This document shows positions 19,203 through 61,323 of a stretch of 64,000 bases of DNA, in pieces. A model generated the notes under the pieces. The model saw nothing but the letters and a program-made list of their open reading frames with translations. It searched no databases and had not been told where the DNA came from. A program made the position numbers and the translations under genes. Numbering within the stretch: position 1 is the stretch's first letter; the number at the start of each line of letters is the position of its first letter. This DNA comes from Patescibacteria group bacterium (GTDB lineage Bacteria; Patescibacteriota; Minisyncoccia; Phycocordibacterales; UBA1550), in contig JBBTUT010000003.1 in the NCBI GenBank assembly GCA_038063615.1, positions 1,352 through 65,351 of the forward strand, read 5' to 3'.

Positions 19203-19294
19203 ATTTATGACATCATTTTGGGAATTTAGTATAGGGGATGAATGTGGGAATCCAGTAGTTCATTATTGGTTCAAAAAGTGGTAGGATTACAAAA

Positions 19295-20251: not shown

Positions 20252-20252
20252 C

Positions 20253-21344: not shown

Positions 21345-21390
21345 TATGACGAGTAGTCTTTTTGCAAAGGTAGAATATGAATTTTTGTCA

Positions 21391-21412
21391 TACTGGGTCA
21401 GGTACCCTTTCC
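21391..21412. repeat. REP-like element tactgggtcaggtaccctttcc
   Basis: Same GGTCAGGTACCCTTTCC core as the hairpins flanking the IS200-like transposase at 35024-35098. Confidence 0.6.
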
Positions 21413-21470
21413 TAAAATTGAATCCAAAAACTAAAATTAAAAATTTTGATGAGGCGGGGGCTGTGGTAGA

Positions 21471-22016
21471 ATGAAATGCATGAAGAATAACAGTGGTAAA
21501 ATTTCAAAGGAGAAGATTTTACCAAACATTGTTTTGAGGTATTATCATTCGCCACAGAAACGGAGTGATAATAAATTATCGGGAATTACTTGCGCCTTCT
21601 GTCTTGAAAAAAACATAATAAATATCGGCGGTGGTTTCCATGACAAAAAGGGTAAACCCCATCAGATTTGCGAAAAATGCGCGGTATGGCGATATCGAGA
21701 TGATAACGGGTTCCGTACTCTGTCCGCAGCAAAAGCGCGCCGCCGTAGAATATTTGATGTTGGGTATATATTTAACGAAATGGTGATTGATAGGTATATA
21801 AGCATAAAGGGTGTTAAAAATTACGATGCCTTACCCACTGGGGTTGCGGATGTGATTTTTATAGATGCTGCTAATCTTTACAACTATCTTTTTAGTAAGG
21901 AGGATAAAATTAGAATCGAAGAAATTGAGAGGCAGGATGAGATTGCGGACGAATTGCGAAAGAGGATTGAAATTATTGATTTCAAAAAATATTTTACCGA
22001 AAAAGGACTTTTGTGA
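21471..22016 (+). CDS. Hypothetical Cys4 zinc-ribbon protein
   Basis: CAFC...CEKC zinc-ribbon-like motifs. Preceded by TGTGGTAGAATGAAATG (-10-like TAGAAT abutting the ATG); first residues MKCM shared with ORF 24356. Confidence 0.45.
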   Translation: MKCMKNNSGKISKEKILPNIVLRYYHSPQKRSDNKLSGITCAFCLEKNIINIGGGFHDKKGKPHQICEKCAVWRYRDDNGFRTLSAAKARRRRIFDVGYIFNEMVIDRYISIKGVKNYDALPTGVADVIFIDAANLYNYLFSKEDKIRIEEIERQDEIADELRKRIEIIDFKKYFTEKGLL

Positions 22017-31002: not shown

Positions 31003-31010
31003 GCGAAATA

Positions 31011-31053
31011 TAAATTCCCCAATTTAACCCTATAGGGCGCGATTGGGGAATTT
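31011..31053. terminator. Nested hairpin aaattccccaat-ttaaccctatagggcgcg-attggggaatttt
   Basis: Inverted repeat with CCCTATAGGG core. Confidence 0.55.
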
Positions 31054-31086
31054 TGAAGTTTCTTATTTTTCTGTGTTGGTAATTTT

Positions 31087-31132
31087 CCAAATCCGCCAGC
31101 TTGGACCTATAGGTCCAAGCTGGCGGATTTGG
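31087..31132. terminator. 46-nt perfect palindrome ccaaatccgccagcttggacctataggtccaagctggcggatttgg
   Basis: Perfect inverted repeat with CTATAG centre. Confidence 0.7.
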
Positions 31133-31191
31133 AATTTCGATTTTGCTACGCTATATCGTGATACGAGAGACTGTGATATAATGCTCAAAAT

Positions 31192-39680: not shown

Positions 39681-40682
39681 ATGAAAAAACAACATACAGA
39701 ACTTTTATTTGTTCAGATTACCCCTGAGTGTAATATGGGTTGTCGATATTGTCCTTTTTCTAACCAAAATAATCTTATAAATAGACAAAATAATTTTAGT
39801 GCGCAGATCAATTCAATCAAAAACACTTTTGACTCAAAATCTTTCACAGAGAGTTCTTTCGGTGAGTTAATTGTATATGGAGGAGAGGCGCTTCTTTACT
39901 TTGACCAAGTTAAAAGAATAATTAATGAATATAAAAATTTCCGACATTACGGAAAAATAACAGTATGCACTAACGGCATTCTTATTAATCAAGATGTCAT
40001 TACCTATTGTAAAACCAACAAGATAAATGTGACTATAAATATGGATGGGGATTTTAATTTAGTCGCAAGTAATAAATTTTTTTCTAAAACAGATTGGGCT
40101 AAACTCACTGGTAATATAAAAGGACTTCATTCAGAGGGAATACCATATGATTTCTCTACGACCATTACACCTCACTTTATTGAAAATTTTAATTCACAAG
40201 TAAAATTTTTAGAATCTTTGCACCCGAGAATGATAGGTTTTAATTTTTTGAGGGATACTCAAGCACAAAAAGAATTTGGAATAAGCAACCCTGATAATTA
40301 TTTGCAAGATGCTACTTCTTTGGTGTTTAAATATAACTCAGTTGTGAATTTTAATCGAAATAAAAAACTGAGAGCTTTTAAAGAGAAAAAACAGATTTCT
40401 GATTGTATATGTTCTGGGATGGGTATAACTATCCTCGCAACCGGTGAATATACGACATGCGGAATATTTCCATCTCAAAGATGCAGGACATCAAGAGAGG
40501 TAATCAGCATCATGAAGGAAAATTATAAAAAATTATTTTTAGACATAGAACTAGGACAAAACATAAAAGACTTACCAACTTTTGGAGGAGGTTGTTCAAA
40601 GCTCTTGCGAGAGGACAATAAAAGATTTTCTTATTATAATGCTTGGGTAAGTTTTGAACAGTTTAATTATGAAAAATTATAA
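39681..40682 (+). CDS. Radical SAM enzyme with C-terminal SPASM domain
   Basis: CNMGCRYC (Cx3Cx2C) at residues 17-24. C-terminal Cys clusters (CICSGMG...CGIFPSQRC...GGGC). Confidence 0.75.
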   Translation: MKKQHTELLFVQITPECNMGCRYCPFSNQNNLINRQNNFSAQINSIKNTFDSKSFTESSFGELIVYGGEALLYFDQVKRIINEYKNFRHYGKITVCTNGILINQDVITYCKTNKINVTINMDGDFNLVASNKFFSKTDWAKLTGNIKGLHSEGIPYDFSTTITPHFIENFNSQVKFLESLHPRMIGFNFLRDTQAQKEFGISNPDNYLQDATSLVFKYNSVVNFNRNKKLRAFKEKKQISDCICSGMGITILATGEYTTCGIFPSQRCRTSREVISIMKENYKKLFLDIELGQNIKDLPTFGGGCSKLLREDNKRFSYYNAWVSFEQFNYEKL

Positions 40683-41457
40683 AATAGGGGTTATTGGCGG
40701 CTCTGGGATATACACTCTGCAAGACTATAAGTTTTTTGCAGGTAATTTTGACAATGAGTACAAAGATAGTGAGTTGGGAATAGAAAAATATAAATTTAGT
40801 AATTGTGAAATATATTTTTTATCTAGACATGGCAAAAATCATATGATCCTACCTCACGAGATAGATTATTTGACCAATATTAAGGCATTTGATGATTTGA
40901 AAGTTGATTGCATCATATCTTTTTGCACTGTTGGTTCATTAGATTCTAATTTCCAGCCCGGCTTGTATGTTACCCCAAAAGATATCATTGATTTTACCTA
41001 CAACAGGAAAGGATGGAACTACACCAAAGAAAACAAGCATGTTGATATACAGCCAGTTTTTGGCGAGGATTTAATGAGAGTTTGTAAGCAACTGTTTAAT
41101 AATATTAATGTTCCATTGAATAATGAGGGAACACTTGTTGTAATTGAAGGACCAAGGTTTGCTACTCTGGCAGAGCAAAATATGTACAAAATATTCGGTG
41201 GTAGTTTTTTGAATATGACCCAAGCGCAAGAAATTTATTTGTCGCATGTTTTCCAAATCCCATTTATTTCTCTGTGCCACATAACCGACCTGACCTCAAT
41301 CGTAAATAAAAACTATGACCTAACTTCAAGTGATGCGATATCGGTATTCAAAAGCAATTACAGTAAAGTGGAGAGGATATTGAGCGCGCTGGTCAAATAT
41401 TTAAGTGAAAATAAACCAGAAATAAAGTATCATAGTGATAAGCAAACTTTCGTGTAA
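40672..41457 (+). CDS. Purine nucleoside/5'-methylthioadenosine phosphorylase family protein (MTAP-like)
   Basis: IGVIGGSGIY N-terminus, SRHGKNHMILPHEIDY, VIEGPRFATLAE, HITD: PNP_UDP_1/MTAP pattern. Overlaps the radical-SAM gene end. Confidence 0.65.
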   Translation, partial: KNYKIGVIGGSGIYTLQDYKFFAGNFDNEYKDSELGIEKYKFSNCEIYFLSRHGKNHMILPHEIDYLTNIKAFDDLKVDCIISFCTVGSLDSNFQPGLYVTPKDIIDFTYNRKGWNYTKENKHVDIQPVFGEDLMRVCKQLFNNINVPLNNEGTLVVIEGPRFATLAEQNMYKIFGGSFLNMTQAQEIYLSHVFQIPFISLCHITDLTSIVNKNYDLTSSDAISVFKSNYSKVERILSALVKYLSENKPEIKYHSDKQTFV

Positions 41458-41550: not shown

Positions 41551-43227
41551 ATGATAAAAGTACAAAATCTTCAGAAAAGCTACGGTTCATTAACAGTGCT
41601 CTCCGATATTTCTTTTTCACTTGGAAGAGGACAGAAGGTGGCATTGGTTGGACTCAATGGAACCGGGAAAACAACTCTGCTTAAAATTGTGGCCGGTCTT
41701 GAGGAGCAGGATGCTGGAAAGATCGACCTTGCAACGGATGCCTGTATCGGTTATCTACCTCAAGATACGGGCCTTTCGGGGAACGAACCCATTATGGACT
41801 ATCTGAGGAAAGTGTCTGGCATTGATGTGCTCGAGAAAGAAATAGGAATTTTGTCTTCTGAGCTGGGTGACCCTGAAAAGGTCAAGCGTTACGGTGATGT
41901 TCGCAGTAAATATGAGCATCTCGACGGTTACTCTTTTGCTCACAGAGCAGAAGTGATGCTTTCAGGATTCGGGCTTGAAGATGTTGGGCTTGACCGCCCA
42001 CTGTCTAATCTGAGCAGTGGGCAGAAAAGCAAAGTGGTACTTGCGGGTATTTTGCTTAAGGGTGTTGATTTGCTTTTGCTTGATGAGCCTACGAACAACC
42101 TCGATCTCCCTGCTCTCATTTGGCTCGAGGATTTTCTGCAAAAATCCAAGGCATCATGCATCGTTGTTTCGCATGACCGCAGATTTCTCGACAAAGTTGT
42201 AAGAAAGATCTTCGAAATTGATTGGCGTACACGCGCACTTACCATCACTGGAGGCACATATAGTGATTATCTGGAAATGGTGGCAAAGCGTGTTGCATGT
42301 CAAAAGGAAGAGTACCGGCTTCAACAGGAGGAAATCGAGCGTCTGAACGAACGGGCGCGCGAAAAGAAGGCGGATGCTACTCGAGGATCACACTGGTCTC
42401 CACGCGACAATGACAAGTTTTTAAAGGGGTTTAAGCGTGATCGTGCTACGAAGTCTTCGAAGGCGGCAAAGGCTATTGAAAAGCGGGTAGAACAAATGGA
42501 TAAGATTGAAAAGCCAATAGAAAGAAAGCCGTTTGAGATACCTCTCAATGCTGAAGTTGATTCTGGTACGCTTGATGTTCGTCTCTCAGATGTTGTGATT
42601 GAATACCCAAACACTTTCCGTATTGGCCCACTGTCTTTTGAGGCACGCTATGGTAGCAGGGTCGGCATAATGGGTCTAAACGGATCAGGAAAATCGACAT
42701 TGCTAAAGACCATAACTGGACAGATGGCGCCTACTCACGGGAAAATTGAGGTTGGTTCTGGTCTCAGGATTGGCAATATGATGCAGGAGCACGAAACGCT
42801 TCCTCGCGAACGCACATTGCTTGAGTTTCTTGAAGAACGGGCACATCTAAGCAAGCAGGATTCATATGCCAAACTGTCAAAGTTTGGGTTCGATGAAAGA
42901 CAGGTCAAGTTGCCTATCAGCACCTTAAGTCCGGGTGGGCGCGCGCGCCTCCTGCTAGCTTTATTCTCAGCCCAGTCGGTCAATATGCTTGTTTTGGATG
43001 AGCCAACAAACCATCTCGATATCGAAGCACTGAATGCCCTTGAAGAAACACTGAGAACTTATCGTGGCACGGTACTGCTCGTCTCTCATGACAGATATTT
43101 CATCGAAAAAGCTTCGCTGGATACAACTTATGTTTTGTCTGACGGAGCTCTGACAAAGATTCCTGATTTTAAGACTTATGTTAAAACAGCAGAAGAGAAA
43201 GCACGAAAGTTGCTTAAACTGTTATGA
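41551..43227 (+). CDS. ABC-F family ATPase (two ABC domains, no TM domain)
   Basis: GLNGTGKTTLLK / LSSGQKSKVVLA / LLLDEPTNNLD, then GLNGSGKSTLLK / LSPGGRARLLLA / LVLDEPTNHLD with an inter-domain linker. Confidence 0.85.
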   Translation: MIKVQNLQKSYGSLTVLSDISFSLGRGQKVALVGLNGTGKTTLLKIVAGLEEQDAGKIDLATDACIGYLPQDTGLSGNEPIMDYLRKVSGIDVLEKEIGILSSELGDPEKVKRYGDVRSKYEHLDGYSFAHRAEVMLSGFGLEDVGLDRPLSNLSSGQKSKVVLAGILLKGVDLLLLDEPTNNLDLPALIWLEDFLQKSKASCIVVSHDRRFLDKVVRKIFEIDWRTRALTITGGTYSDYLEMVAKRVACQKEEYRLQQEEIERLNERAREKKADATRGSHWSPRDNDKFLKGFKRDRATKSSKAAKAIEKRVEQMDKIEKPIERKPFEIPLNAEVDSGTLDVRLSDVVIEYPNTFRIGPLSFEARYGSRVGIMGLNGSGKSTLLKTITGQMAPTHGKIEVGSGLRIGNMMQEHETLPRERTLLEFLEERAHLSKQDSYAKLSKFGFDERQVKLPISTLSPGGRARLLLALFSAQSVNMLVLDEPTNHLDIEALNALEETLRTYRGTVLLVSHDRYFIEKASLDTTYVLSDGALTKIPDFKTYVKTAEEKARKLLKLL

Positions 43228-43230
43228 GCA

Positions 43231-43275
43231 TAGAACCCAACAAGCATAAAAGCTTGTTGGGTTCTATTTATTTCG
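43231..43275 (+). terminator. Hairpin agaacccaacaagc-ataaa-gcttgttgggttct plus atttatttc
   Basis: Perfect 14-nt stem after the ABC-F stop. Confidence 0.7.
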
Positions 43276-43414
43276 GCATGGATTTTAGTATGCCGATGTA
43301 TTCAATGCAAAATTTCTTTCATTTTTCGCATCGGGCGTGGTATAATTGAAATGTAAAAGTTCGTACAAATACTGATTCGAGCGTTGGGTATGAGAAAAAT
43401 AGTTTGTTTTTAAA

Positions 43415-44182
43415 ATGATAAAATTAACTTTTATTGGAAGTGGCTGTTGGCAGGGTATTCCAGCGCCTTTTGGTGCGGATAAAATTAGCCAGAATGTAGA
43501 ATGGGGTTCAAAAGATTTTCGCTTTAGGACATCTCTCCATATTGAAACTGAAAATGGGAAAAGTATTGTAGTTGAGGCAACACCTGATATTAGGTTGCAA
43601 TCATGGAAGTTTAAGTTAGGAAAACCTGATGCTATTCTTGTTTCTCATTGGCACTGGAATCATTTATTTGGGTTGCTCGATTTAGATTGGTTTGCTAAAA
43701 AGAACCCACTTATTGTCTATGGGAATAGTGTGACGAAAGAGTGGTACGAAGAAAGGATGAATCATGTGAATGTTAATTTTCAAACATTTAAGTCGTATGA
43801 GCCGTTTGAAATTGATAATCTTAGGATTACTCCTGTTGCCGTTGAACATGTCAGCGGTACAGATGGGTTTCTGTTTGAAGATTTAAATAGTGGCAAAAGA
43901 TTTGCGTATCTTTCTGATTTAAGTGGGATACCCGATGATACCGTTGGAATGATTAGAGATATTGATTTAATCATCACCGATGTCACATACATTGAATCAG
44001 ATATAAATGATGACCCTACTCATTTAAAGAAGGATCAAATTATTCCGTTTCTCAAGAATCTCAAAGCAAAGGAAATAGTTCTAGTAAACATAGGGTCGTA
44101 TCAAAAGCTTACGCACGATGACCTCGAACAAAAATTTCCTCAATATGCTATTGCGTATGACGGAATGGAGCGATGGTTTTAA
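43415..44182 (+). CDS. MBL-fold metallo-hydrolase-like protein (variant HWHWNH motif)
   Basis: VSHWHWNHLFGL sits where HxHxDH normally is (Asp replaced by Asn). TGGTATAAT box at about 43330. Confidence 0.55.
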   Translation: MIKLTFIGSGCWQGIPAPFGADKISQNVEWGSKDFRFRTSLHIETENGKSIVVEATPDIRLQSWKFKLGKPDAILVSHWHWNHLFGLLDLDWFAKKNPLIVYGNSVTKEWYEERMNHVNVNFQTFKSYEPFEIDNLRITPVAVEHVSGTDGFLFEDLNSGKRFAYLSDLSGIPDDTVGMIRDIDLIITDVTYIESDINDDPTHLKKDQIIPFLKNLKAKEIVLVNIGSYQKLTHDDLEQKFPQYAIAYDGMERWF

Positions 44183-44221
44183 TAGCTATCTAAAAAAGAA
44201 ATTAATATTAAACTATATATT

Positions 44222-45343
44222 ATGAAGTTAAAATCAAATCTCATAGACCAGTTGGACAAGGCAGACAGCCTATTTAAAAACGAAATAATATCCGAATTTG
44301 GAATTCCTGTTTATAATCCAGAATCTCATTATTTGGAGCTAACAAAATCAAAGTATTATTGGGCGTTACTTACCCTCCGCCATTGCCTCAAGGTCTCATC
44401 TGACCAGTACTTTAGTGTTGATGTTGGGGCTACTAACATAGATTTATTTATGATGACACCAAGTGTTTCTTCTCCAATGGGACCAGGTTCTGATTCTGAG
44501 GCAATACCGATAAAGTTTGGGAACCTGGTTACTTTTCTTGTTGATTCGTCCCAGTTTGGTTTTGAGCCACTACTAATTAATAATTTTGATAAAGTATATT
44601 GCTACCTCCCTTCAATGCGTGGTGAAGATCACGACAAGAGGCATCTTAATCAATTTTATCATTGTGAAGCAGAAATAAGAGGAGAATTAGGTGATTTAAC
44701 CCCAATCATAGAAAAATATATTAAGATTTTGGCCGAGACATTAAAAGCTTTGCCAAATCTAACTGAAAAAATTAGTGCTAATATGTCCGCCACAAATAGT
44801 GCAATAGAAGCTATAATATCGGCTGATAAATTCCCTGTGATTACTTTTGACGAAGCGATTGTGTTGTTGGAAGAAAACGGGCATCAGTCACTTGTCAATT
44901 ATTCCGAACATGGGCGGGACATTACTTCTTATGGGGAAATTATTTTATCAAAGATGTTAGGATTTAAAACACCTTTTTGGGTGCACGGCTATGATCGTGG
45001 CAGAGTTGCTTTTTATCAAAAGCCAGACCCTAATAACCTTGACAAGGTTATTAATGCTGACTTAATCTTCCCACCACTTTTTGAAGGGGCATTTGGTGGG
45101 GAAATTGTTGGATGCGGACAGAGACAGGACAATAAAAGTGAGATACTTGAGTCATTGAGAATTCAAAATATATCATCTGAGCCATACGAATGGTATATAA
45201 ATTTGAGAGAGTTACCAGAGTACAAAACCACTTCCGGTTTTGGGCTTGGCATAGAAAGATTTATAACATGGGCACTCGGTCATGATGATATTAGAAATTC
45301 TATTCCGTACCCTCGTCTGAAGAATGTACTAACCTTACCATAA
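44222..45343 (+). CDS. Class II aaRS-like catalytic-core protein (AspRS/AsnRS paralog lacking anticodon-binding domain; AsnA / AS-AR-like)
   Basis: Motif 2-like MRGEDHDKRHLNQFYHCEAEI and motif 3 GFGLGIERFITW. Homologous to the C-terminal half of the aspS at 58349. No OB-fold N-terminus. Confidence 0.65.
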   Translation: MKLKSNLIDQLDKADSLFKNEIISEFGIPVYNPESHYLELTKSKYYWALLTLRHCLKVSSDQYFSVDVGATNIDLFMMTPSVSSPMGPGSDSEAIPIKFGNLVTFLVDSSQFGFEPLLINNFDKVYCYLPSMRGEDHDKRHLNQFYHCEAEIRGELGDLTPIIEKYIKILAETLKALPNLTEKISANMSATNSAIEAIISADKFPVITFDEAIVLLEENGHQSLVNYSEHGRDITSYGEIILSKMLGFKTPFWVHGYDRGRVAFYQKPDPNNLDKVINADLIFPPLFEGAFGGEIVGCGQRQDNKSEILESLRIQNISSEPYEWYINLRELPEYKTTSGFGLGIERFITWALGHDDIRNSIPYPRLKNVLTLP

Positions 45344-45347
45344 AAAT

Positions 45348-46208
45348 ATGAAAAATATGCCAAACTACTACAATAAAGTTACTGAATATTTTAACGAGAA
45401 AGCATCTAGTTATGATGAAGTTGACAACCAAAAATATTGGGTGTTGTCCGATATGTTCTTTAAAGAAATTCTACGAAGAGAACTCCCGGCACTTATTGGG
45501 GACAAAAAACATATCAACCTTTTAGATGCTGGAGCTGGCACTGGTCGCTGGACAATTTTTTTTGATGAAATATTTAAAGATCAATATGATATAACAGGCA
45601 CCCTTGTAGATATTTCAAGTAAAATGCTTGATGAGGCATCTAAAAAATTAAAGGCAAGTGGCGCAGACACCCGCTTTAAGATTAAGAACACTAATATTGA
45701 AAATCTCGAAGATTTCCCCAATAAGAATTTTGATTTAAGTTTATCTTTCTATAATGTCATAAGCTTCGTGGAAGATCCTAAACGGGCACTTACTGAAATA
45801 CATCGAGTTTTGAGTGATGATGGTGTGCACATAAGTATTGTAGCTAATAAATATCATGCATACTACTTTTCGTTCCTTACTAACCGGCTCTCATCAATAG
45901 ATTCAATAAAAAAAGACTCGAAGGTTCGTTTCAATGACCTCATGCCGGCTATCCACTGCTTTACCCCAGAAGAACTAAAAGATCTTTATCTCTCGGCTGG
46001 TTTTAAAACCTGTAGGGTTATTGGTGGCCCAAATTTTATTTATCCTGGAATGGAAGAAACTTATGTGCACGGCAGCACCCCCTCATTGCAAGAGAAGCTT
46101 GCTGAGGCTGATAATTTCCAAAAAATACTAGAAGCCGAACTTGAGTACTACAACATGCCTGATATTGTGGGAAGAGGGAATGTATTACTCGCAATTGCCA
46201 CTAAATAG
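45348..46208 (+). CDS. Class I SAM-dependent methyltransferase
   Basis: Motif I LLDAGAGTGRWT. Confidence 0.65.
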   Translation: MKNMPNYYNKVTEYFNEKASSYDEVDNQKYWVLSDMFFKEILRRELPALIGDKKHINLLDAGAGTGRWTIFFDEIFKDQYDITGTLVDISSKMLDEASKKLKASGADTRFKIKNTNIENLEDFPNKNFDLSLSFYNVISFVEDPKRALTEIHRVLSDDGVHISIVANKYHAYYFSFLTNRLSSIDSIKKDSKVRFNDLMPAIHCFTPEELKDLYLSAGFKTCRVIGGPNFIYPGMEETYVHGSTPSLQEKLAEADNFQKILEAELEYYNMPDIVGRGNVLLAIATK

Positions 46209-46218
46209 AAACATTCTT

Positions 46219-47259
46219 ATGTCTACTCTCTCACTAAAACCACACTATTTGGAAAAAGGGGATACCGTCGGGCTAATAAGCCCAGCTGCCCCCCTTGCTG
46301 GGTTGGTGCCTCACCGTACTGACCAAGGAATCAAAATGTTGGAAGAGCTTGGTTTTAAGATAAAAATTGGATTGAACGCTATGAATATAACTGGCTATAC
46401 TGCTGGCACTGCAGAAGAAAGGGCGTCAGATATAAATAACTTTTTTGCTGACCCAGAAGTAAAAGGAATTGTTTCTTTTATAGGGGGGAATCATTCGAAT
46501 CAAATTTTAGAATATCTTGATTTTGATATTATTAAAAAAAACCCGAAAGTATTTATTGGGTACTCTGATATTACTGTTCTGCATTTAGCCATATATGCAA
46601 TGACTGAGCTAACTACTTTTTATGGTCCAGCAGTTTTGACACAGTTTGCTGAAAATCCTGCAATAATGGAATATACAAAAAAATATTTTTTGAAAGCAGT
46701 TACACAAAAAAGTCCAATTGGCGTGATCGAGCAATCAGTAGAGTGGACAGATGAAACTCTAAATTGGTTCACAAAAGAAGATTTGCAAGGAGCACGCCAG
46801 ATGAAGCTTAATTCCGGATGGAGATGGCTTAAGAGTGGTACGGCTCAGGGGAAATTACTCGGTGGGTGTCTTGCCTCAATGATGCATCTTCGTGGAACAA
46901 AGTATTGGCCAGATTTTGAAAAGGCAATTTTATTTTGGGAAATCTCCGAGGGTGAGGCAGATTTTCGTTTAGGAGAGAGTGTGTCAACAATAGATGCGCA
47001 TTTAACCGATTTGGAGTTGTCTGGCGTCTTCACCTCTATTCAGGGAATGATAGTCGGTCGTCCTTTTGGATATGACTCAGGCCAAGAACAAAAATTAATA
47101 GAAAAAATTTTAGAGAGAACAAAAAAGTATTCATTCCCAATTCTTTATGGTGTTGATATCGGACACACAGACCCGATGATCACTCTTCCTATTGGGGTAA
47201 AAGTAATGATTAATTCAGACAAGAATATTTTTGAAATTTTAGAGAGTGGCGTAATGTAG
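46219..47259 (+). CDS. Peptidase S66 family (LD-carboxypeptidase LdcA / microcin C immunity MccF-like)
   Basis: GYSDITVLH nucleophile motif. C-terminal DIGHTDP catalytic His region. ORF track begins at 46141. Confidence 0.7.
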   Translation: MSTLSLKPHYLEKGDTVGLISPAAPLAGLVPHRTDQGIKMLEELGFKIKIGLNAMNITGYTAGTAEERASDINNFFADPEVKGIVSFIGGNHSNQILEYLDFDIIKKNPKVFIGYSDITVLHLAIYAMTELTTFYGPAVLTQFAENPAIMEYTKKYFLKAVTQKSPIGVIEQSVEWTDETLNWFTKEDLQGARQMKLNSGWRWLKSGTAQGKLLGGCLASMMHLRGTKYWPDFEKAILFWEISEGEADFRLGESVSTIDAHLTDLELSGVFTSIQGMIVGRPFGYDSGQEQKLIEKILERTKKYSFPILYGVDIGHTDPMITLPIGVKVMINSDKNIFEILESGVM

Positions 47260-47379
47260 AACCTCATGGTTGAATGTACCACCGGGGCACTTGACAAATT
47301 ACAAGAACTAATATACATTGTTGCTAGTTTAGTTTTTTGAAATTTCACAAAGGAAACAAACAAATAAGGAGGTGCTAAG

Positions 47380-48675
47380 ATGACACATACAATGTTTGTC
47401 CAGGCGCATTTGGGTGCTGAGTTTTCCGGGATGGCTAGAGTTTTATCCAAGAGGCATATCGGCAAGATTTTATTTTGTGGGGCACGCCTTTTGGAAGAAA
47501 ACATTCAGTTAGTATTTAGAGAGGAACACCTCGCAAACTATCGACACATCGTTAGTCTGCCGAGAGGGAGTTTGCTCAAGGTCTCTGGGAATAAAATACA
47601 TACTCGGAGCGGCACACCATCACTGGAAATAACTTCCGCAGACATTATCCATATCGTCAAAGAAAACTTACCAGATAAACAAAATTGCCTGAGTAGGTCG
47701 CTTCGATATCGTCGCCGAACGATTGATCTTATGACGAACGACACATCTTTCGTCTTTTTTAGGAGGCAATCAGAGGTCTTGATGATAATAAGGAAGTTTC
47801 TTTATGATTTGGGGTATCATGAGTTCATTACTGGCACATTGCAGGAAGTGTTTGAAGGTGGACAGTCTGTGTCTTTCGACACATACTGCAAGGCGACTGG
47901 TAAAAATGTTACTCTTAGCTTAACAAGTGAACTGAAGCTTAGGCGGTTGCTTGTCTCTGGGTTTGATCGTGTGTTTGAGATTGCTCAATCATTTCGAAAT
48001 GAAGGTTCTGACAAACTACATTCTCCTGAGTTTACTCTTTTGGAAATGTATGCTCGCAGTTCTGGACATTTAGAAATGATGGAATTGCTTGAGTCAATGG
48101 TTTCAGAAATTGCTGGGAAAATACAAGATGATTCCGATGTCCTGTTTACTCCAGAAAGATACCGTGCTCCGTTTCAGCGTATTCTTTTTCGAGAGGTATT
48201 CGAAAATCATTTTGGTGATTTTAGCAGATTTAACATTCAGTATTTCTCAGAATTAATGCCAGAGATGTTCAATGTGGCAATGTCTCATTTCACTTGGACA
48301 ATGAAGCTCATTGAAAAAGTGATTCTTCCAACTATTCGTGGACCAGCATTTCTTGTTGAGTTACCAGTTGGAATGTCTCCATTCGTTAAAAATTCAAGCG
48401 ATGGTGTAACCACACAGAGAGCATTCTTTGTCGCTGATGGATTATTTGTCGCCGATATTTATTCTGACGAGAATAATCCAGACATAATACAAAAGAATCT
48501 CGAACAGCAATCAATGGCGGTTGGGAATGTCTTAAATAAAGATTATGTTGAGATATTATCGCTTGGGCTTGGCGAGTCAGCCGGTCTAGGCATGGGCTTA
48601 AATCGTTTATCGATGCTCTTTTTGGGCACTTTGCCTCGCGATATTAAAGAAACTATATTGTACCCAATTCTCTAA
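47380..48675 (+). CDS. Lysyl-tRNA synthetase-like paralog (class IIb, divergent)
   Basis: OB-fold-like N-terminus. Motif 2 FRNEGSDKLHSPEFTLLEMY. Degenerate motif 3 GLGMGLNRLSMLF (Asn in place of the conserved Asp). Confidence 0.6.
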   Translation: MTHTMFVQAHLGAEFSGMARVLSKRHIGKILFCGARLLEENIQLVFREEHLANYRHIVSLPRGSLLKVSGNKIHTRSGTPSLEITSADIIHIVKENLPDKQNCLSRSLRYRRRTIDLMTNDTSFVFFRRQSEVLMIIRKFLYDLGYHEFITGTLQEVFEGGQSVSFDTYCKATGKNVTLSLTSELKLRRLLVSGFDRVFEIAQSFRNEGSDKLHSPEFTLLEMYARSSGHLEMMELLESMVSEIAGKIQDDSDVLFTPERYRAPFQRILFREVFENHFGDFSRFNIQYFSELMPEMFNVAMSHFTWTMKLIEKVILPTIRGPAFLVELPVGMSPFVKNSSDGVTTQRAFFVADGLFVADIYSDENNPDIIQKNLEQQSMAVGNVLNKDYVEILSLGLGESAGLGMGLNRLSMLFLGTLPRDIKETILYPIL

Positions 48676-48689
48676 AAAGGAGGTCTATC

Positions 48690-50090
48690 ATGAACCGTTA
48701 CCCCGATTCTTTTTACAAGAGTCACTCTATTCTTCAAGTAATATCTGAGCATGAAGATTTAGTTAAGGATGTAACCGAAGTCACTACTGCAGGGAGAGTG
48801 CTTGCGCGACGAGCTTTTGGTAAAATCATATTCCTCGATATCCAGGATTTTTCTTCAAAGATCCAGTGCTATGCGAGGGAGGATATCTTAGGTTCGACTA
48901 AACAGGTATTTATTGCGAAGCAACTCAAAGTTGGAGATGTTGTTGGCGTGCGTGGCACAGCGTTCCTCCCAAAATCAGGAGAAAAGTCTATTAAGCTTAC
49001 TGATATATTTTTGCTTTCGGAAACAACTCTTCCGTTCCCAGAAAAATATCACAGGCTAGTAGACCAAGAGGCCCGTTATCGCCAGCGTTATCTTGATCTC
49101 ATTATGAATTCTGATACGCGGAAGATTTTCCAGACACGGTTCTTGTTGTTGAAAGAACTGCGCCGTTTCCTTGATGGTCGTGGCTTTATTGAGGTAGAAA
49201 CACCGATATTCCAACATACCCCTTGCGGTGCATCGGCGAACCCATTTCGGACACGGCACGACGCAAAAGGAATTGATCTTTATCTTCGTATCTCACCAGA
49301 GACATATCTTAAGCAGTTGATAGTAGCTGGGATAGATAGGGTGTATGAGATTGGTAAAAACTTTCGAAACGAGGGGGTTGACCCGACACATCTTCAAGAG
49401 TTTACGATGCTCGAGTTCTATGTCTCCTATTGGAGCTATCGTGAGAATATCGTGTTTGTTCAAGAGCTGTTGCGAGAAATCATTCAGAGGAGCACTGGCG
49501 GGCTGTCTATCCCATGCAACGAGATAACACTCGATTTTGGCGCAGAATGGAGCCATGTGAAATATCGAGATGTTTTACTTTCTGGAACGGGGATAGATGT
49601 TCTTGAGATGCGGAATACTACGGAGCTTCTGGCTGAAATGAAGCGGTGTGGTGTTGAAATTGAGCATGAGAAAGTGGAGTCGCTGGGTTCGATGGTTGAT
49701 AAGCTGTACAAGCGTTTTGTACGACCAAATCTTGTTCAGCCAACAATCTTAATGCAGCATCCAGCATATTTACTGCCTCTTGCTCGCCCAAGTGATGAAG
49801 ACCCTCGTGTTGCGGACTCATTTCAGGTACTGGTTAACGGGTGGGAGATAGTCAAAGCGTATTCGGAACTGGCTGACCCGGAGCTACAACGGTCACTCCT
49901 CGAAGGTCAATCTCAGTCTCGTAAAGACGGCGACAAAGAAGCCATGTTTTTAGATGAAGATTTTCTTCTTTCTTTAAAGTATGGCATGCCACCTGTCTCT
50001 GGGGTTGGAATTGGTATTGATCGGCTTCTCGCGATTCTTACTAATCAACGAAACCTCAATGAAGTTGTTTTGTTCCCTTTGATGAAGTAG
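48690..50090 (+). CDS. lysS: Lysyl-tRNA synthetase (class IIb), canonical motifs
   Basis: Motif 1 region, motif 2 FRNEGVDPTHLQEFTMLEFY, motif 3 GVGIGIDRLLAIL. N-terminal anticodon-binding OB fold. Confidence 0.75.
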   Translation: MNRYPDSFYKSHSILQVISEHEDLVKDVTEVTTAGRVLARRAFGKIIFLDIQDFSSKIQCYAREDILGSTKQVFIAKQLKVGDVVGVRGTAFLPKSGEKSIKLTDIFLLSETTLPFPEKYHRLVDQEARYRQRYLDLIMNSDTRKIFQTRFLLLKELRRFLDGRGFIEVETPIFQHTPCGASANPFRTRHDAKGIDLYLRISPETYLKQLIVAGIDRVYEIGKNFRNEGVDPTHLQEFTMLEFYVSYWSYRENIVFVQELLREIIQRSTGGLSIPCNEITLDFGAEWSHVKYRDVLLSGTGIDVLEMRNTTELLAEMKRCGVEIEHEKVESLGSMVDKLYKRFVRPNLVQPTILMQHPAYLLPLARPSDEDPRVADSFQVLVNGWEIVKAYSELADPELQRSLLEGQSQSRKDGDKEAMFLDEDFLLSLKYGMPPVSGVGIGIDRLLAILTNQRNLNEVVLFPLMK

Positions 50091-50099
50091 CATAGTTCT

Positions 50100-50140
50100 T
50101 CTTTGTTTCCTTGCACGGCTATTGATTTTAAAATCAATAG
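50100..50140 (+). terminator. Hairpin acggctattgatttt-aaaatcaatagccgt plus U-tract, followed by the duplicated 51-nt module
   Basis: Perfect stem after lysS. Confidence 0.7.
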
Positions 50141-50201
50141 CCGTGTTTTTTTGTTTTCTTTTTTTGTGCGGGGCGTGGTATGATTGGGGGAACGGAACGA
50201 T

Positions 50202-51275
50202 ATGGAATTCGCTTTTTTAGTACACCCAAGGGATTTGTCGGATGTTTTTAAAAAATATCCGTTGCTTAAGTTTTTCCCTGTATCATTGACCGAATTCTTT
50301 CTATTAAAATTTTGGCCACCTGTTTTTGTTGCAAAAATAACAGGGTTAAAATTGGTGGGTGGTGGTAATTCTACAAATGGGTGTGTTCTTAGCATTCCTT
50401 TAACCGCAAGGCAGATGATGGAGAATAGGACTGTTGCTTCGAAAAAGATATTAGATGCGACAATTTTTGCTAAAAACATTGGTGTGAAAATTATTGGATT
50501 GGGGGCTCTGACTTCCTCCCTTAGTAAAGGCGGGTTAGATTTAATAGATAAAGTAGATATCAATATAACGACAGGGCATGCTTATACCGCATACAATGTA
50601 ACAAAAAATATATTTGAACTTTGTCGTATTCTCGATCTTGATAAAACAAAAATAACTGTTGCAATTGTTGGGGCGGCTGGGTCTATTGGTTCTACCTCAG
50701 CTCGAGTTCTTGCTCGTGCTGGGTACCAGAATCTACTACTGGTTGATCTTGAAAGAAAGCGACACTTTTTTGAAAAACTCGAAAGCGAACTTAGGAATTT
50801 TAATAGTGGGATTAATATTAAGTTTTCACATCAAATCAAAGATATTATTAATGCTGATGTTGTCATTACTGCAACAAACGCTCCAGAGGCTTTGGTAGAA
50901 GCAGGAGACCTTAAGGTTGGAGCTATCGTTGTTGATGATGCTCAACCATCTGATATTTCAGAAAATGTTTTTGAGAGAGAAGATGTTCTAGTTGTTTCTG
51001 CTGGAGTTGTACATACTCCAAATATCGAAACTCATTTTAATTTCGGGTTAGCAGATAAGTTTGATAATTTTTGTTGCCTTGCCGAGTTGCTGATTTTGGC
51101 ATCGCATAAATGGGACAAACATTATATAATTGATCGAGCAACTCTTGAATCAGTTGATGAAATAGCTGAGTGGGGGGAAGCACTTGGTTTTCATTTGGCA
51201 AAGTTTCAAAACCCAAGAGGGCTAATCTCCACGGAAAAACTCAGTGAAATAAAAAGAATAATTCATCAAAAATAA
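50202..51275 (+). CDS. Acyl-ACP-reductase-like NAD(P)-dependent thioester reductase (AAR / glutamyl-tRNA-reductase superfamily)
   Basis: Architecture parallels cyanobacterial AAR: N-terminus FAFLVHP, W-PP...ITG block, GLGALTS, Rossmann VAIVGAAGSIGS, and conserved catalytic-Cys context NFCCLAELLIL (AAR: MFACFAEAMLL). ORF track begins at TTG 50184. Confidence 0.55.
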   Translation: MEFAFLVHPRDLSDVFKKYPLLKFFPVSLTEFFLLKFWPPVFVAKITGLKLVGGGNSTNGCVLSIPLTARQMMENRTVASKKILDATIFAKNIGVKIIGLGALTSSLSKGGLDLIDKVDINITTGHAYTAYNVTKNIFELCRILDLDKTKITVAIVGAAGSIGSTSARVLARAGYQNLLLVDLERKRHFFEKLESELRNFNSGINIKFSHQIKDIINADVVITATNAPEALVEAGDLKVGAIVVDDAQPSDISENVFEREDVLVVSAGVVHTPNIETHFNFGLADKFDNFCCLAELLILASHKWDKHYIIDRATLESVDEIAEWGEALGFHLAKFQNPRGLISTEKLSEIKRIIHQK

Positions 51276-51276
51276 A

Positions 51277-53061
51277 ATGATACTTAACCTTGATATCAAA
51301 AATACATTAATATTGATTATCGCGGTAATCAATATTACATACGGCGCAATCATTTATTTAAAAGATAAAAAGAGCGCTACCAGTAGCTGGTTTTTCCTTT
51401 TGGCCGTCTCGGTGGGATTATGGGGAGTAAGTATGTTTTTATTTCGATCTGCTCAAGAAGAGTATTTGGCCAGTATTTTTTCAAGAATTTTGTATTTCTC
51501 AGCAGCGGTTATCCCCATCGTGTTTATTTATTTTTCAGCTGTCTTCCCAAGTGTTTCATCTGTATTTGGTTTTCGACAAAAATATATTCTGCCAATCCCA
51601 TTTTTTATAATAGCTTTATTCTCCTTAACTCCTGATTATCTGGTAAAGAGTACGCAGATTCTAGTAGGTGAAGAAACACACATTTTATTTAATAATTTTT
51701 ATCATACACTTTATGTTTTTTACATAAATATTTTTTTCGCATACGGATATTTTTTATTGGTTAAAAAATATTTTGTAAGCAGATTTCAAGATGTTGTTTT
51801 AAGTAAGCAAATTATTTATATTATCGCAGGAACATTTATTTCGACAATGATTGGTGTTTTTACAAACCTGCTTGGACCATATATGGGTATATTTAAGTTT
51901 AATTGGGTTGGTCAAATTGGAAATGTCGTTATGATTTCAGCTATCTCATATGCAATAGCTAAACATCAGTTGTTTAACATCAAACTCATCCTCGTTGAAT
52001 TGGCGATTTTGTTGCTTAATATGTTTCTTTTGTTCAATGTGTTTACTTCGCATGCGACGGTGGACTTTGTGCTCAATATCTCGGTGTCATTGTTTGTCTT
52101 TATCTTCAGCATCATCCTTATGCGCGGTATTTACAAGGATATTCGGGACAGAGAGCGGATCGAGGGATTGGCGAAAGAGATGGCGGTGACGAACGAGAAG
52201 CTCCATATACTGGAACAACAAAAGACGGAGTTTGTGTCCATCGCTTCGCACCAGCTCCGCACTCCGCTGACAGTCATCAAGGGCTATGCGTCGATGATCC
52301 TCGAGGGGACTTTTGGCACCATTGCCACTCCGGTGCACGATGCTATGGACAAGCTGTACAAGTCGAGCGAGAGGATCGTGGCACTGGTGGAGGACCTGCT
52401 GACGGTGTCGCGACTGGAGCAGGGGAGAGGCGCGCTTCATTTTGAGACGGTGGACCTCGTGAGAGTCATTCAAATGGTGACGATGGAAATGGATGAAGAT
52501 ATCAAGAGGTCAAATCTCGACTTCTCGTTTACGGTGGAAGAGGGGGGAGAATTCCCCGTCGCAATCGACGAGAAAAAGTTCAAGCAAGTGGTGAAGCACA
52601 TCCTCGACAATGCCATCGAGTACACAAACGCCCCCGGCAGAGTGCGTATCGCTATCAATGAAGACAACATCGCCGACAAAATCCGTCTCACGGTTTCTGA
52701 TACCGGGGTGGGGATGACCGCGGAGCAGATCCAGAGTATTTTTGAGAGGTTTAATTTGAAGATTAAAGAGCAGACGACAAACGACGGACAACAGACGACG
52801 GGGGAAGGGGAAAGGAAAAAGGAAGGAAAGTTTTTATGGCCGAGCCACGAATCAGCTGATTCGAAGTTGAAAGTGGAAAGTGGAATACAAGAATCAAAAT
52901 CAGAAGAACCAGAGACAGAGGCGCCAAACCAGCGCACGCCCGGTATCGGGCTCTACATTGCGCAGGAAATTATCGAAGCCCACCACGGCACCCTGCACAT
53001 CGAGTCCGCCGGCATGAACGAAGGCACGACGGTGATCGTGGAGTTGCCGAGGGCTAAATAA
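51277..53061 (+). CDS. Membrane sensor histidine kinase (multi-TM sensor, HisKA, HATPase_c with low-complexity insertion)
   Basis: H-box SIASHQLRTPLTVIKGY. G1 DTGVGM and G2 GIGLYIA are separated by an about 45-aa Gly/Glu/Lys-rich insert. Confidence 0.8.
   Translation: MILNLDIKNTLILIIAVINITYGAIIYLKDKKSATSSWFFLLAVSVGLWGVSMFLFRSAQEEYLASIFSRILYFSAAVIPIVFIYFSAVFPSVSSVFGFRQKYILPIPFFIIALFSLTPDYLVKSTQILVGEETHILFNNFYHTLYVFYINIFFAYGYFLLVKKYFVSRFQDVVLSKQIIYIIAGTFISTMIGVFTNLLGPYMGIFKFNWVGQIGNVVMISAISYAIAKHQLFNIKLILVELAILLLNMFLLFNVFTSHATVDFVLNISVSLFVFIFSIILMRGIYKDIRDRERIEGLAKEMAVTNEKLHILEQQKTEFVSIASHQLRTPLTVIKGYASMILEGTFGTIATPVHDAMDKLYKSSERIVALVEDLLTVSRLEQGRGALHFETVDLVRVIQMVTMEMDEDIKRSNLDFSFTVEEGGEFPVAIDEKKFKQVVKHILDNAIEYTNAPGRVRIAINEDNIADKIRLTVSDTGVGMTAEQIQSIFERFNLKIKEQTTNDGQQTTGEGERKKEGKFLWPSHESADSKLKVESGIQESKSEEPETEAPNQRTPGIGLYIAQEIIEAHHGTLHIESAGMNEGTTVIVELPRAK
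52801..52885. repeat. 85-nt element (ggggaagggg...aagtttttatggccgagc...aatcagctgattcgaagt.gaaagt) inserted in-frame in the kinase ATP-lid; second copy at 56216-56300
   Basis: Shared 19-nt and 24-nt blocks between the two loci, read directly. Confidence 0.7.
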
Positions 53062-53242
53062 TTTTGTGGATATGTTTTTTGCAAAATTATCGCCCGAACA
53101 TTTGTAAACAAATGTTTTAGAGGGAGGGGCAGTTAAATAGCCAATAGTGAATAGTCAATAATATTACGCGGCGACCCCTCTGTTTTTGTGTTTGGTGTGG
53201 TAGAATGATATGGAGGAAAAAGATTCTAGTATATATTGGTAT

Positions 53243-53764
53243 ACAAACATGTCTCAAGAAAAAAATTTAGCGTTTATTGACGGACAAAACTTACACCTAG
53301 GAACCACGCAAAATGGGTGGAAAGTTGATCATAATAAATTGAGAGTGTATTTGAAAGATAAGTATCATGTAACGGAAGCATATTATTTTTTGGGGTATGT
53401 CTCAGAAGAAGAACAAGACCTCTACAATAATCTGCAAAAAGCAGGATTCATTGTTTTGTTCAAGGAACACAACTCAAATCTGAAAGCAAAAAAGAAAGGG
53501 AATGTTGATACCGATATTGTGTTTGAAATAATGAAACACCTTGTTGACAATAAAGATTTTGACAAGTTTCTTTTGGTTTCTGGTGATGGTGATTATAAAA
53601 AGGTGGTTGATTATTTGATAAAGAAAAACAAATTTAGAAAGATCCTTTTCTCAAATAAAAAATTCGCTTCTTCTTTGTTTAAAAGCCTAGGATCTGAATT
53701 CTTCGATTACATGGAAAACTTCAAAACATACATAGAGTGGTCTAAAAAAGAAAAGGGCTCCTAA
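53243..53764 (+). CDS. NYN/LabA-like domain protein
   Basis: KNLAFIDGQNLHLGT, GNVDTDIV, LVSGDGDY motifs. An upstream in-frame ATG at 53210 follows a GGTAGAAT box. The stop lies inside the conserved terminator-like element. Confidence 0.7.
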   Translation, partial: TNMSQEKNLAFIDGQNLHLGTTQNGWKVDHNKLRVYLKDKYHVTEAYYFLGYVSEEEQDLYNNLQKAGFIVLFKEHNSNLKAKKKGNVDTDIVFEIMKHLVDNKDFDKFLLVSGDGDYKKVVDYLIKKNKFRKILFSNKKFASSLFKSLGSEFFDYMENFKTYIEWSKKEKGS

Positions 53765-61252: not shown

Positions 61253-61323
61253 GTGCTATTTTATAAGTACTGTTGGTATGTTTTGTATTAAAAAACGATT
61301 GGCGGTATACTGAGCTTGTTAAT

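Follow-up and report, generated by a model that had tools for sequence, protein, structure and literature searches.

The subject of this report is a 64,000-nt stretch of DNA, here called the window, from a bacterium of the Patescibacteria (GenBank assembly GCA_038063615.1, contig JBBTUT010000003.1, positions 1,352 to 65,351), and within it a set of six plus-strand genes at 43415-50090 that form one operon-like unit. The genes encode an MBL-fold hydrolase, an AsnRS-like protein, an S-adenosylmethionine (SAM)-dependent methyltransferase, an S66 peptidase, a LysRS-like paralog and a complete LysRS (lysS). With a confidence somewhat above even, we read this unit as a cassette of the agrocin 84 type for an aminoacyl-nucleotide antimetabolite with a lysine module, in which self-protection would be given by the S66 peptidase and by an additional copy of an aminoacyl-tRNA synthetase (aaRS). 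Agrocin 84 is a "Trojan-horse" antibiotic and acts by poisoning a tRNA synthetase. Across Patescibacteria, cassettes related to this one occur widely, with modules for other amino acids. The window was taken from an 82-kb contig of a 0.1-µm-filtered Hainich groundwater metagenome, in which NCBI protein names read "Patescibacteria group bacterium", and families were assigned by Pfam and NCBIfam profile searches of the window proteins.

An original prediction, made from the letters of the sequence, had pointed to a locus of nine co-directional genes running from an ABC-F ATPase to a reductase. All nine open reading frames (ORFs) are present on the plus strand, which carries almost all genes of the window, and the profile searches agree with the identities proposed for the ABC-F protein (NF000355, 421 bits against a cut-off of 380), for the methyltransferase and for the last of the nine genes, an AAR/PigE-N-terminal-like reductase. 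What forms a unit is the six genes, with the ABC-F and reductase genes lying outside. The two strongest terminator-like hairpins of the region, both on the plus strand, are found at 43230-43267 (16-pair stem and T tract), directly 3' of the stop codon of the ABC-F gene, and at 50113-50146 (15-pair stem and T7), directly 3' of lysS; they mark the upstream and downstream boundaries, respectively. Because these hairpins bracket the genes from the MBL hydrolase to lysS, and the gaps inside are as short as 4-120 bp, we take the physical unit to be the six genes of 43415-50090. The best promoter-like site of the region (47291-47319, plus strand; TTGACA-17-TACATT, 10/12 matches) lies in the 120-bp gap 5' of the LysRS-like gene. 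The low GC content ascribed to the whole nine-gene block applies to the genes from the MBL hydrolase to the LysRS-like paralog (0.37-0.41) and to the reductase gene (0.37), whereas the ABC-F gene (0.46) and lysS (0.445) are at the window mean of 0.445. The genes leuS, alaS, dnaK, trpS and archaeal-type aspS are also in the window, as had been noted for the four aaRS genes among them, and the GC content of trpS and aspS is 0.49-0.54.

The constant enzyme of the cassette family is the AsnRS-like protein (44222-45343, plus strand; 373 aa), a class IIb paralog of the AsnRS catalytic core. It had been described as an AsnA-like ligase without an anticodon domain; the latter part holds, and the former does not. 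In searches against known structures, it obtained 114 bits with AsnRS (1x54) versus 34 bits with the archaeal AS-AR (3p8t). A fold search gave AsnRS structures as top matches and placed AsnA structures outside the top 50, and the protein is below every NCBIfam AsnA cut-off. The assignment to archaeal-type asparagine synthetase (AsnA/AS-AR) was therefore rejected. A homologue was found by tblastn against plasmids, namely AgnA ("agrocin 84 synthetase") of the agrocin 84 (agn) cluster; the match covers 89% of the protein at 32.8% identity (E 1e-36 to 1e-41). AgnA has 58 of the 104 residues that are invariant in the AsnRS-like family, and the two share the pocket residues Q111, E115, R133, E135, H141, D280, E294, R301 and R346. 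They also have in common a family-specific loop, TxSxSSPxGxGS, which is present in AgnA and in the AsnRS-like proteins of the Candidate Phyla Radiation (CPR, i.e., Patescibacteria) and whose position in the AlphaFold model of the window protein is that of loop 76-109, modelled with low confidence. The motif 2 and motif 3 arginines and the metal ligands D280/E294 are retained, and the AsnRS-type pocket residues Q111, E115 and R301 are invariant across all cassette variants. AgnA has been proposed to form the phosphoramidate (N-P) bond of agrocin 84 (PMC8323819).

The S66 serine peptidase gene is placed by gene callers at 46219-47259 (plus strand), and its longest ORF starts at 46141. The protein had been attributed to the MccF family, and this was borne out: it scores about 200 bits with the MccF structures 3tla and 3tyx, compared with 62-72 bits with LdcA, and matches AgnC5 of the agn cluster over its full length (35.9% identity, 222 bits). 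By these scores it belongs to the MccF clade and not to LdcA. MccF cleaves the amide bond of aminoacyl-nucleotides, with a Trp stacking on the adenine (PMC8323819). The catalytic triad Ser116/Glu241/His316 and the loop residues Trp176/Trp183 are present in the window protein, and the triad and the adenine-stacking loop Trp are kept in 67 cassette S66 proteins including AgnC5. Judged from their residues, both the S66 and the AsnRS-like enzymes look active.

The methyltransferase gene (45348-46208, plus strand) begins 4 bp 3' of the AsnRS-like gene and encodes a class I enzyme of UbiE-like fold. In sister cassettes, methyltransferases of the c7 family have 38.8% identity to AgnB1, the agn methyltransferase (E 6e-70), so that on sequence grounds this family is orthologous to AgnB1; one such cassette (L090) has the LysRS-like gene. 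The MBL hydrolase gene (43415-44182, plus strand) lies 39 bp 5' of the AsnRS-like gene; its product is PhnP/PRK02113-like and shows the variant motif HWHWNH that had been read from the sequence. Elsewhere, an MBL hydrolase adjoins the cassette only in a near-identical strain (L091), and we regard it as a lineage-specific accessory gene. By analogy, it may be the phosphohydrolase of this cassette, a slot taken by HD or HAD enzymes in other variants, by a NUDIX enzyme on pAgK84 and by a metallophosphoesterase in Pantoea. An anti-phage defence system was considered and rejected because the core genes have no specific PADLOC match: in that search the AsnRS-like, S66 and LysRS-like proteins had no matches, and the methyltransferase had a generic match alone.

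The linkage of these genes was examined in related loci. A metagenome scan seeded with the AsnRS-like protein gave 80 loci, on which a tblastn census and ORF clustering were carried out; 23 unbiased AsnRS-like-seeded loci, flanked on each side by 4 kb or more, were used as the comparable set. The AsnRS-like and S66 genes emerged as the fixed pair of the family, with partners that vary. In this set, an S66 gene lies beside the AsnRS-like gene in 22 loci, a SAM methyltransferase is found in 20, a second amino-acid-activating enzyme in 22 and an HD or HAD phosphohydrolase in nine. This second enzyme differs between loci: it may resemble the AlaRS catalytic core (accessory family c2; profile E 1e-12 to Aquifex AlaRS 1riq) or, marginally, HisRS/HisZ (c4), or it may be a BacD/DdaF-like ATP-grasp ligase, the LysRS-like paralog or, in L136, an AspRS-like paralog. 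Single-sequence PDB searches with c2 and c4 gave no match, and c4 did not align with AgnC1 of the agn cluster. Occasional extras are an S-adenosylmethionine (AdoMet) decarboxylase, a LysA-like pyridoxal phosphate (PLP) decarboxylase and a truncated RlmN/Cfr-like radical SAM enzyme. The Lys-type block of the window, in which a LysRS-like gene accompanies the AsnRS-like, methyltransferase and S66 genes, is also present in L004, L005, L087, L088, L089 and L090, and in part in L006. Gene order and orientation are shuffled among the fetched loci, and the ABC-F, MBL and reductase genes are absent from L004, L005, L006 and L087-L090. Linkage that survives gene reshuffling is a classic sign of functional coupling, and since the core genes remain together despite their shuffled order and orientation, such coupling is indicated here. 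Their clustering is far beyond chance, and the four core genes of the window fit the four-function template of the cassette family exactly.

The census also bears on the outer genes of the nine. The ABC-F gene had been regarded as a hallmark member of the locus, but ABC-type genes are near the cassette in only 2 of the 23 loci and in the window a hairpin lies between, while the reductase found one weak match in the census (24% identity, L100). The ABC-F gene, the reductase gene and a pair of genes further upstream, for a radical SAM enzyme and an MTAP-like nucleoside phosphorylase, were therefore rejected as cassette members, because they are not conserved with the cassette and are set off from it by the terminator-like hairpins.

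The slot of the second amino-acid-activating enzyme is filled in the window, by analogy with the other variants, by the LysRS-like paralog (47380-48675, plus strand; 431 aa), which consists of an OB anticodon-binding fold and a class II core. Following it by 14 bp is lysS (48690-50090, plus strand; 466 aa), which encodes a full-length class II LysRS of the actinobacterial type and passes both of its profile cut-offs (518 bits against 468; 481 bits against 428). The paralog obtains 231 bits against the equivalog cut-off of 468 and, with the genX model, 90 bits against 287. Its family of about 69 clusters (420-445 aa, 36-70% identity) contains only Patescibacteria among its named members and is clearly apart from canonical LysRS, which score at most 185 bits. 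A tandem duplication of the adjacent lysS was rejected as its origin, because it is closer to Firmicute and E. coli-type LysRS. In a scan with the LysRS-like alignment, whose back-translated motifs are common to ordinary LysRS, the matches listed (L007-L086) were canonical lysS loci of other phyla.

Both tandem LysRS-like genes had been noted earlier, one of them with a degenerate motif 3. Motif 3 is intact in both (G473/G475/G477/R480), and the degeneracy is in the metal/alpha-phosphate site of the paralog, where E421 is replaced by Phe, E or Q at 414 by Phe, N or K at 424 by Asp, E428 by Asp and A217 by Gly. E421 is universal in 112 canonical LysRS. The paralog retains R262/E264 of motif 2, H270, F274, R480 of motif 3 and the lysine ligands E240/E278/Y280. 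The class IIb anticodon-binding residues R25/F32/Q43, which would contact U35 as in AspRS and LysRS structures, are invariant in 31 sequences. The model of the protein (pLDDT 90.6) shows an N-terminal five-stranded OB barrel and matches the LysRS-tRNA complex of T. thermophilus with a TM-score (TMq) of 0.86. As for tRNA-dependent amide ligation, which had also been suggested, no tRNA gene was found in the window or in 8 related loci examined, yet the anticodon-binding fold of the paralog is intact. A genetically encoded new amino acid, or a dedicated tRNA or RNA element, was dropped as a candidate because there are no such tRNA genes and no Rfam matches in the window.

The active-site residues of lysS, at the positions checked, all match those of 69 actinobacterial-type LysRS, and Q414 and K424, tried as a sign of resistance, were discarded because they are normal for this type. 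The clade of lysS differs at three second-shell positions, R245Q, D/E434L and R438L (E. coli numbering), which are near-invariant charged positions in 69 related LysRS; to judge from the sequences, these changes may be resistance determinants. The closest relatives of lysS are 50-60% identical, and its next-best matches come from other phyla. For at least 21 of the 45 clusters in the clade, the paralog is on the same contig, and two members picked blind to context (L175 and L176) both follow AsnRS-like, methyltransferase, S66 and LysRS-like genes. Wherever context is available, the clade is seen only beside the cassette. We regard lysS as a candidate self-immunity copy like AgnB2, the resistant LeuRS of the agn cluster, or else as a housekeeping gene.

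Concerning the division of roles, we favour for lysS the role of AgnB2, as an immunity or alternative enzyme, and for the paralog that of a lysine-selecting biosynthetic or toxin-binding part. This is because the paralog sits in the slot held elsewhere by truncated aaRS cores, and because a full extra aaRS with an aaRS-related protein is the pattern of the agn cluster and of a Xenorhabdus cluster described below. The reverse is possible, though we rate it as unlikely: the paralog would be a toxin-insensitive LysRS analogous to AgnB2, and lysS a sensitive housekeeping gene to which the cassette is adjacent by happenstance. The intact OB fold with its invariant R25/F32/Q43 speaks for the exchange of roles, as do the kept lysine ligands and motifs 2 and 3, with remodelling exactly around the adenylate phosphate site, and the presence of the paralog in every Lys-type cassette when lysS is missing from some. 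However, the paralog has Phe in place of the universal catalytic E421, whereas the catalytic site of AgnB2 is almost unchanged; the slot is held in 19 of the 23 sister cassettes by truncated aaRS cores or ATP-grasp ligases, which are incapable as working synthetases; and the lysS clade, wherever context is available, is seen only beside the cassette.

For the agrocin-84-type cassette that we favour, we infer the product, its target and the identity of the protecting lysine enzyme from these homologies, and the following course may be envisaged. The LysRS-like paralog, which keeps the Lys-binding residues, would select and bind lysine. The AgnA-like enzyme would use ATP to join an amide or acid derived from the amino acid to a nucleotide, as has been proposed for the N-acyl-phosphoramidate bond of agrocin 84. 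The methyltransferase would decorate the product, by analogy with MccD of microcin C or with AgnB1, and the MBL hydrolase would trim a phosphate-containing intermediate. The product would be a stable aminoacyl-adenylate mimic, most likely of lysyl-adenylate and probably an N-acyl-phosphoramidate or a related compound; in other cells it would act by blocking a tRNA synthetase (LysRS). The producer would be protected by the S66 enzyme, cleaving the aminoacyl-nucleotide amide bond in the manner of MccF, together with the cassette-linked LysRS copy.

Several points weigh against this scheme. The biochemical role of AgnA has never been shown, and the precise route to agrocin 84 is not known (PMC8323819). 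The window's own methyltransferase matches AgnB1 weakly (E 9e-4). Since the paralog has no E421, it may have lost adenylation altogether. The LysRS-like gene occurs without an adjacent lysS in L004, L088, L089, L090 and L005, and lysS, whose active site is normal, may be the sole housekeeping LysRS. Neither an exporter nor genes that would modify the nucleoside or supply an uptake moiety (equivalents of agnD-F) are found within 43268-50112; ABC exporters come no closer than 29203-32997, and among the related loci a MatE gene adjoins the cassette only in L176. Lastly, the AsnRS-like protein has a mean column identity of 74% across Staskawicz-, Andersen-, Nomura-, Wolfe- and Moranbacteria (candidate phyla within Patescibacteria), which is unusually high for a secondary-metabolite enzyme; as far as sequence can tell, a physiological role would fit too.

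Another explanation, which we consider quite unlikely, models the cassette on the Trojan-horse antibiotic microcin C in a reduced form. The AsnRS-like enzyme would make an isoasparaginyl-adenylate by MccB-like chemistry and a second ligase would add an N-terminal carrier (Lys); the target would be AspRS, with the S66 peptidase as the sole immunity factor. The invariance of the pocket residues Q111, E115 and R301 in all variants is consistent with this, and MccF-clade peptidases are known to cleave isoasparaginyl-adenylates. Among the sister cassettes, some pair a methyltransferase-fold protein with a PLP or AdoMet decarboxylase, comparable to the aminopropylation by MccD/MccE, the ATP-grasp variants are similar to BacD and DdaF, which are ligases for dipeptide antibiotics, and one variant has an AspRS-like paralog. 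On the other hand, the unit contains no MccB/ThiF-like enzyme or precursor peptide; small ORFs ending in Asn do occur in the gaps, with no MccB accompanying them. AgnA has the same pocket though the amide in agrocin 84 is leucine-like, this explanation gives no reason for the tight linkage to a full lysS, and the S66 proteins (27-63% identity) are far more divergent than the AsnRS-like proteins (52-66%, with an outlier of 28% in L005).

An improbable explanation, in our view, is that the cassette serves no antibiotic purpose and makes or recycles a physiological aminoacyl-nucleotide or aminoacylated molecule, for the cell envelope or for tRNA or protein modification, that many Patescibacteria need. 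In very small genomes dispensable genes are rare, and the AsnRS-like protein is common as well as conserved. It is much commoner than the LysRS-like one, with homologues in 941 clusters at E<=1e-8; each of the top 120, some 372 aa in length, reaches 60% identity or more. Because of this conservation and because no exporter is consistently present, the physiological reading stays alive, and the conserved anticodon-binding residues of the paralog count in the same direction. Against it are the patchy, modular gene content, the occurrence of close homologues on Bradyrhizobium plasmids, flanked there by insertion sequences (IS), and in antibiotic clusters of Rhizobium and Xenorhabdus with extra aaRS genes and pumps, and the fact that neither tRNA genes nor known modification enzymes are linked. 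The idea that core genes have come together by chance (an AsnA making asparagine, an LdcA recycling murein and a duplicated lysS), which could appeal to the many housekeeping aaRS genes of the window and to a lysS that passes equivalog cut-offs, is very improbable, since the census finds the core genes together in every related locus examined and co-varying as a block with shuffled order and orientation across dozens of loci, the peptidase and the ligase are of the MccF clade and AgnA/AsnRS-like rather than LdcA and AsnA, the GC content is below that of other aaRS genes, and the same block is on plasmids of unrelated bacteria.

Taking the agrocin-84-type reading further, we put forward tentatively a wider proposal, whose full extent we regard as doubtful: that Patescibacteria, and by horizontal transfer some rhizobia, possess a large modular family of minimal toxin cassettes for aminoacyl-adenylate mimics, in which Lys, Ala, His, Asp or ATP-grasp modules surround an AgnA-like and MccF-like pair; that these episymbionts use them to poison or control the translation of hosts or competitors; and that the window holds the first natural LysRS inhibitor of the lysyl-adenylate type with a linked resistant LysRS. 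The genomes of Patescibacteria are among the smallest of bacteria, and secondary metabolism is considered to be nearly absent from them. If a conserved, mobile cassette does produce poisons of tRNA synthetases, as predicted here, it would provide a concrete chemical means by which they compete with or exploit other microbes. That the aaRS-like modules can be exchanged suggests that nature offers a toolkit of aminoacyl-nucleotide antibiotics whose targets can be predicted. Because the agrocin 84 pathway is still unsolved, a minimal version of four to six genes, compared with the 17 genes of agn, would be a tractable system for studying the functions of AgnA, AgnB1 and AgnC5. Symbiosis plasmids of Bradyrhizobium carry a cassette with about 59% identity, which indicates that genes have passed between rhizobia of agricultural importance and ultra-small bacteria not yet in culture.

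Several features of the sister loci are recorded here. L136 (8377-16274) has, besides its AspRS-like paralog (312 bits, cut-off 353), AsnRS-like protein, methyltransferase and S66 peptidase (63% identical to that of the window), a truncated RlmN/Cfr-like radical SAM enzyme and an ABC-F protein. The Cfr/RlmN-like enzyme is also found in L145, L131 and L120; it could methylate the adenine of the product or be a ribosome-resistance gene. In L113, L143, L169, L165 and L166, an AdoMet or LysA-like PLP decarboxylase adjoins an AgnB1-type methyltransferase-fold protein, and by analogy with MccD/MccE in microcin C the two decarboxylase routes could each yield an aminopropyl decoration. Type IV secretion-like genes (PrgI, TraC-like and VirB4/DUF87 ATPase) are located a few kb 3' of the cassette in L004 (16478-19493), L088 (16785-19803) and L123. 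HIT phosphoramidases (MccH) are immunity factors against microcin C-type adenylates, and a HIT-family protein (weak Pfam match) is encoded just 5' of the cassette in L004 (6336-6812).

In the window itself, the radical SAM gene upstream of the ABC-F gene overlaps the gene for the MTAP-like nucleoside phosphorylase by 29 bp (39681-41457; GC content 0.31-0.34), and its product gives weak SPASM-maturase and viperin-like matches (PADLOC pVip, 42 bits). This pair is not conserved beside the cassette, and a nucleoside phosphorylase occurs in the agn-like cluster of Xenorhabdus and in some CPR cassettes. Downstream, the reductase gene is followed after 1 bp by a gene for a HisKA_7TM histidine kinase (50184-53061). 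A HisKA_7TM kinase is also paired with a similar reductase, or with a CER1-like_C protein, in two other Patescibacteria loci, L100 (9992-12542) and L005 (16042-19292), and the two genes may form a separate conserved pair. An NYN-domain protein (PADLOC NYN, 31 bits) is encoded at 53210-53764, a few kb 3' of the cassette; another protein with this domain is encoded some 4 kb away from the homologous cassette of a Bradyrhizobium plasmid (L171, 14275-14820), which is maybe a coincidence. Farther away are a 570-aa ORF (61273-62985) in which a RadC-family domain (residues 31-233) is fused to a DNA cytosine-5 methyltransferase (287-480), and a second block of low GC content (0.38-0.41) at 18141-22016, whose three consecutive ORFs of 318-363 aa have no NCBIfam match at E<=1e-20.

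The original prediction had proposed a locus for a metabolite of the aaRS-inhibitor or aminoacyl-adenylate type with self-resistance, and had not recognised the arrangement as a described system. The former view is backed by the agn homologues of three window core proteins, agn being an experimentally defined cluster, and by the architecture of a Xenorhabdus plasmid; the latter needs revision, as the arrangement resembles agn and agn-like clusters, including those with MetRS genes. In the annotated agn region of pAgK84 (Rhizobium rhizogenes K84), agnA is followed by the SAM methyltransferase gene agnB1 and the aaRS gene agnB2, as an AgnA-type enzyme, a methyltransferase and then an aaRS gene follow one another in the window; further along is agnC5, annotated as an "MccF-like protein". 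AgnC1, a remote class II aaRS-like protein, is likewise shared in kind; it is remotely ProRS-like, and agrocin 84 carries a leucine-like amide (PMC8323819). AgnB2 is a complete extra aaRS for self-immunity and is about 1000-fold less sensitive to the toxin (PMC8323819). A complete lysS is co-located with the cassette in the same manner, and by this analogy lysS would be the insensitive enzyme. The extra enzyme is a LeuRS (class I) in agn and a LysRS (class II) in the window. Another difference is that the window has no equivalents of agnC2-C7, agnD-F and agnG, i.e., of the genes for hydroxy-acid tailoring, 3'-deoxy-nucleoside synthesis, the opine-mimic moiety and the pump: the 17 genes of agn stand against the four to six of the Patescibacteria cassette, whose host is ultra-small and has not been cultivated. 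In Actinobacteria, agn-like clusters contain MetRS genes, and MetRS is their predicted target (PMC8323819, a 2021 review).

The megaplasmid of Xenorhabdus bovienii CS03 has an annotated cluster, for which we found no characterisation, that is almost the same as the cassette in logic and gene order, having an AgnA-like protein, a methyltransferase (40% identical to AgnB1), an S66 peptidase and, further on, a full extra aaRS gene next to one for a truncated aaRS-related protein. It differs in that these last two are a LeuRS (41.6% identical to AgnB2) and a ProRS-like protein, and in that it includes a nucleoside phosphorylase, VOC/GloA and an MFS exporter. Other plasmids carry parts of the set: methyltransferase, AsnA-like and ATP-grasp genes in Bacillus pseudomycoides, and a GNAT::AsnA-like fusion, an MFS pump and a metallophosphoesterase in Pantoea. 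On IS-flanked Bradyrhizobium symbiosis plasmids, S66, AsnRS-like (59% identical to that of the window), HAD and methyltransferase genes are found together. In Bradyrhizobium barranii pBb323S2a (L171, 7955-11740), these four have 47-60% identity to CPR "variant A" cassettes, and the block is flanked by IS elements and lies next to nodU on a conjugative symbiosis plasmid; such similarity in such a setting implies horizontal transfer between rhizobia and Patescibacteria.

Microcin C (mcc) shares with the window an MccF-type S66 peptidase with an adenine-stacking Trp and a class I methyltransferase-fold tailoring enzyme, and its product is a non-hydrolysable aminoacyl-adenylate, the same class as would be expected for the window. 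It differs in having the MccA peptide, the ThiF-like MccB, the MccC pump and MccE, none of which is in the window unit. AS-AR and E. coli AsnA are, like the AsnRS-like protein, aaRS catalytic cores without an anticodon domain, but the latter is distinguished by the AgnA-family loop insertion and by scores that place AsnRS first. EpmA/PoxA (GenX) is comparable to the paralog as a LysRS-derived protein with a non-canonical role; unlike the paralog, it has no anticodon-binding domain, and no epmB or epmC is linked to the cassette. In the literature, we found no description of this cassette in Patescibacteria, of its modular aaRS-like partners or of its LysRS-linked variant. Agrocin 84 is already known, and so are agn-like clusters that carry other aaRS genes (PMC8323819). 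What appears new is that a minimal AgnA/MccF-like cassette occurs widely in Patescibacteria, that its aaRS-like partners are modular and that one variant is linked to LysRS.

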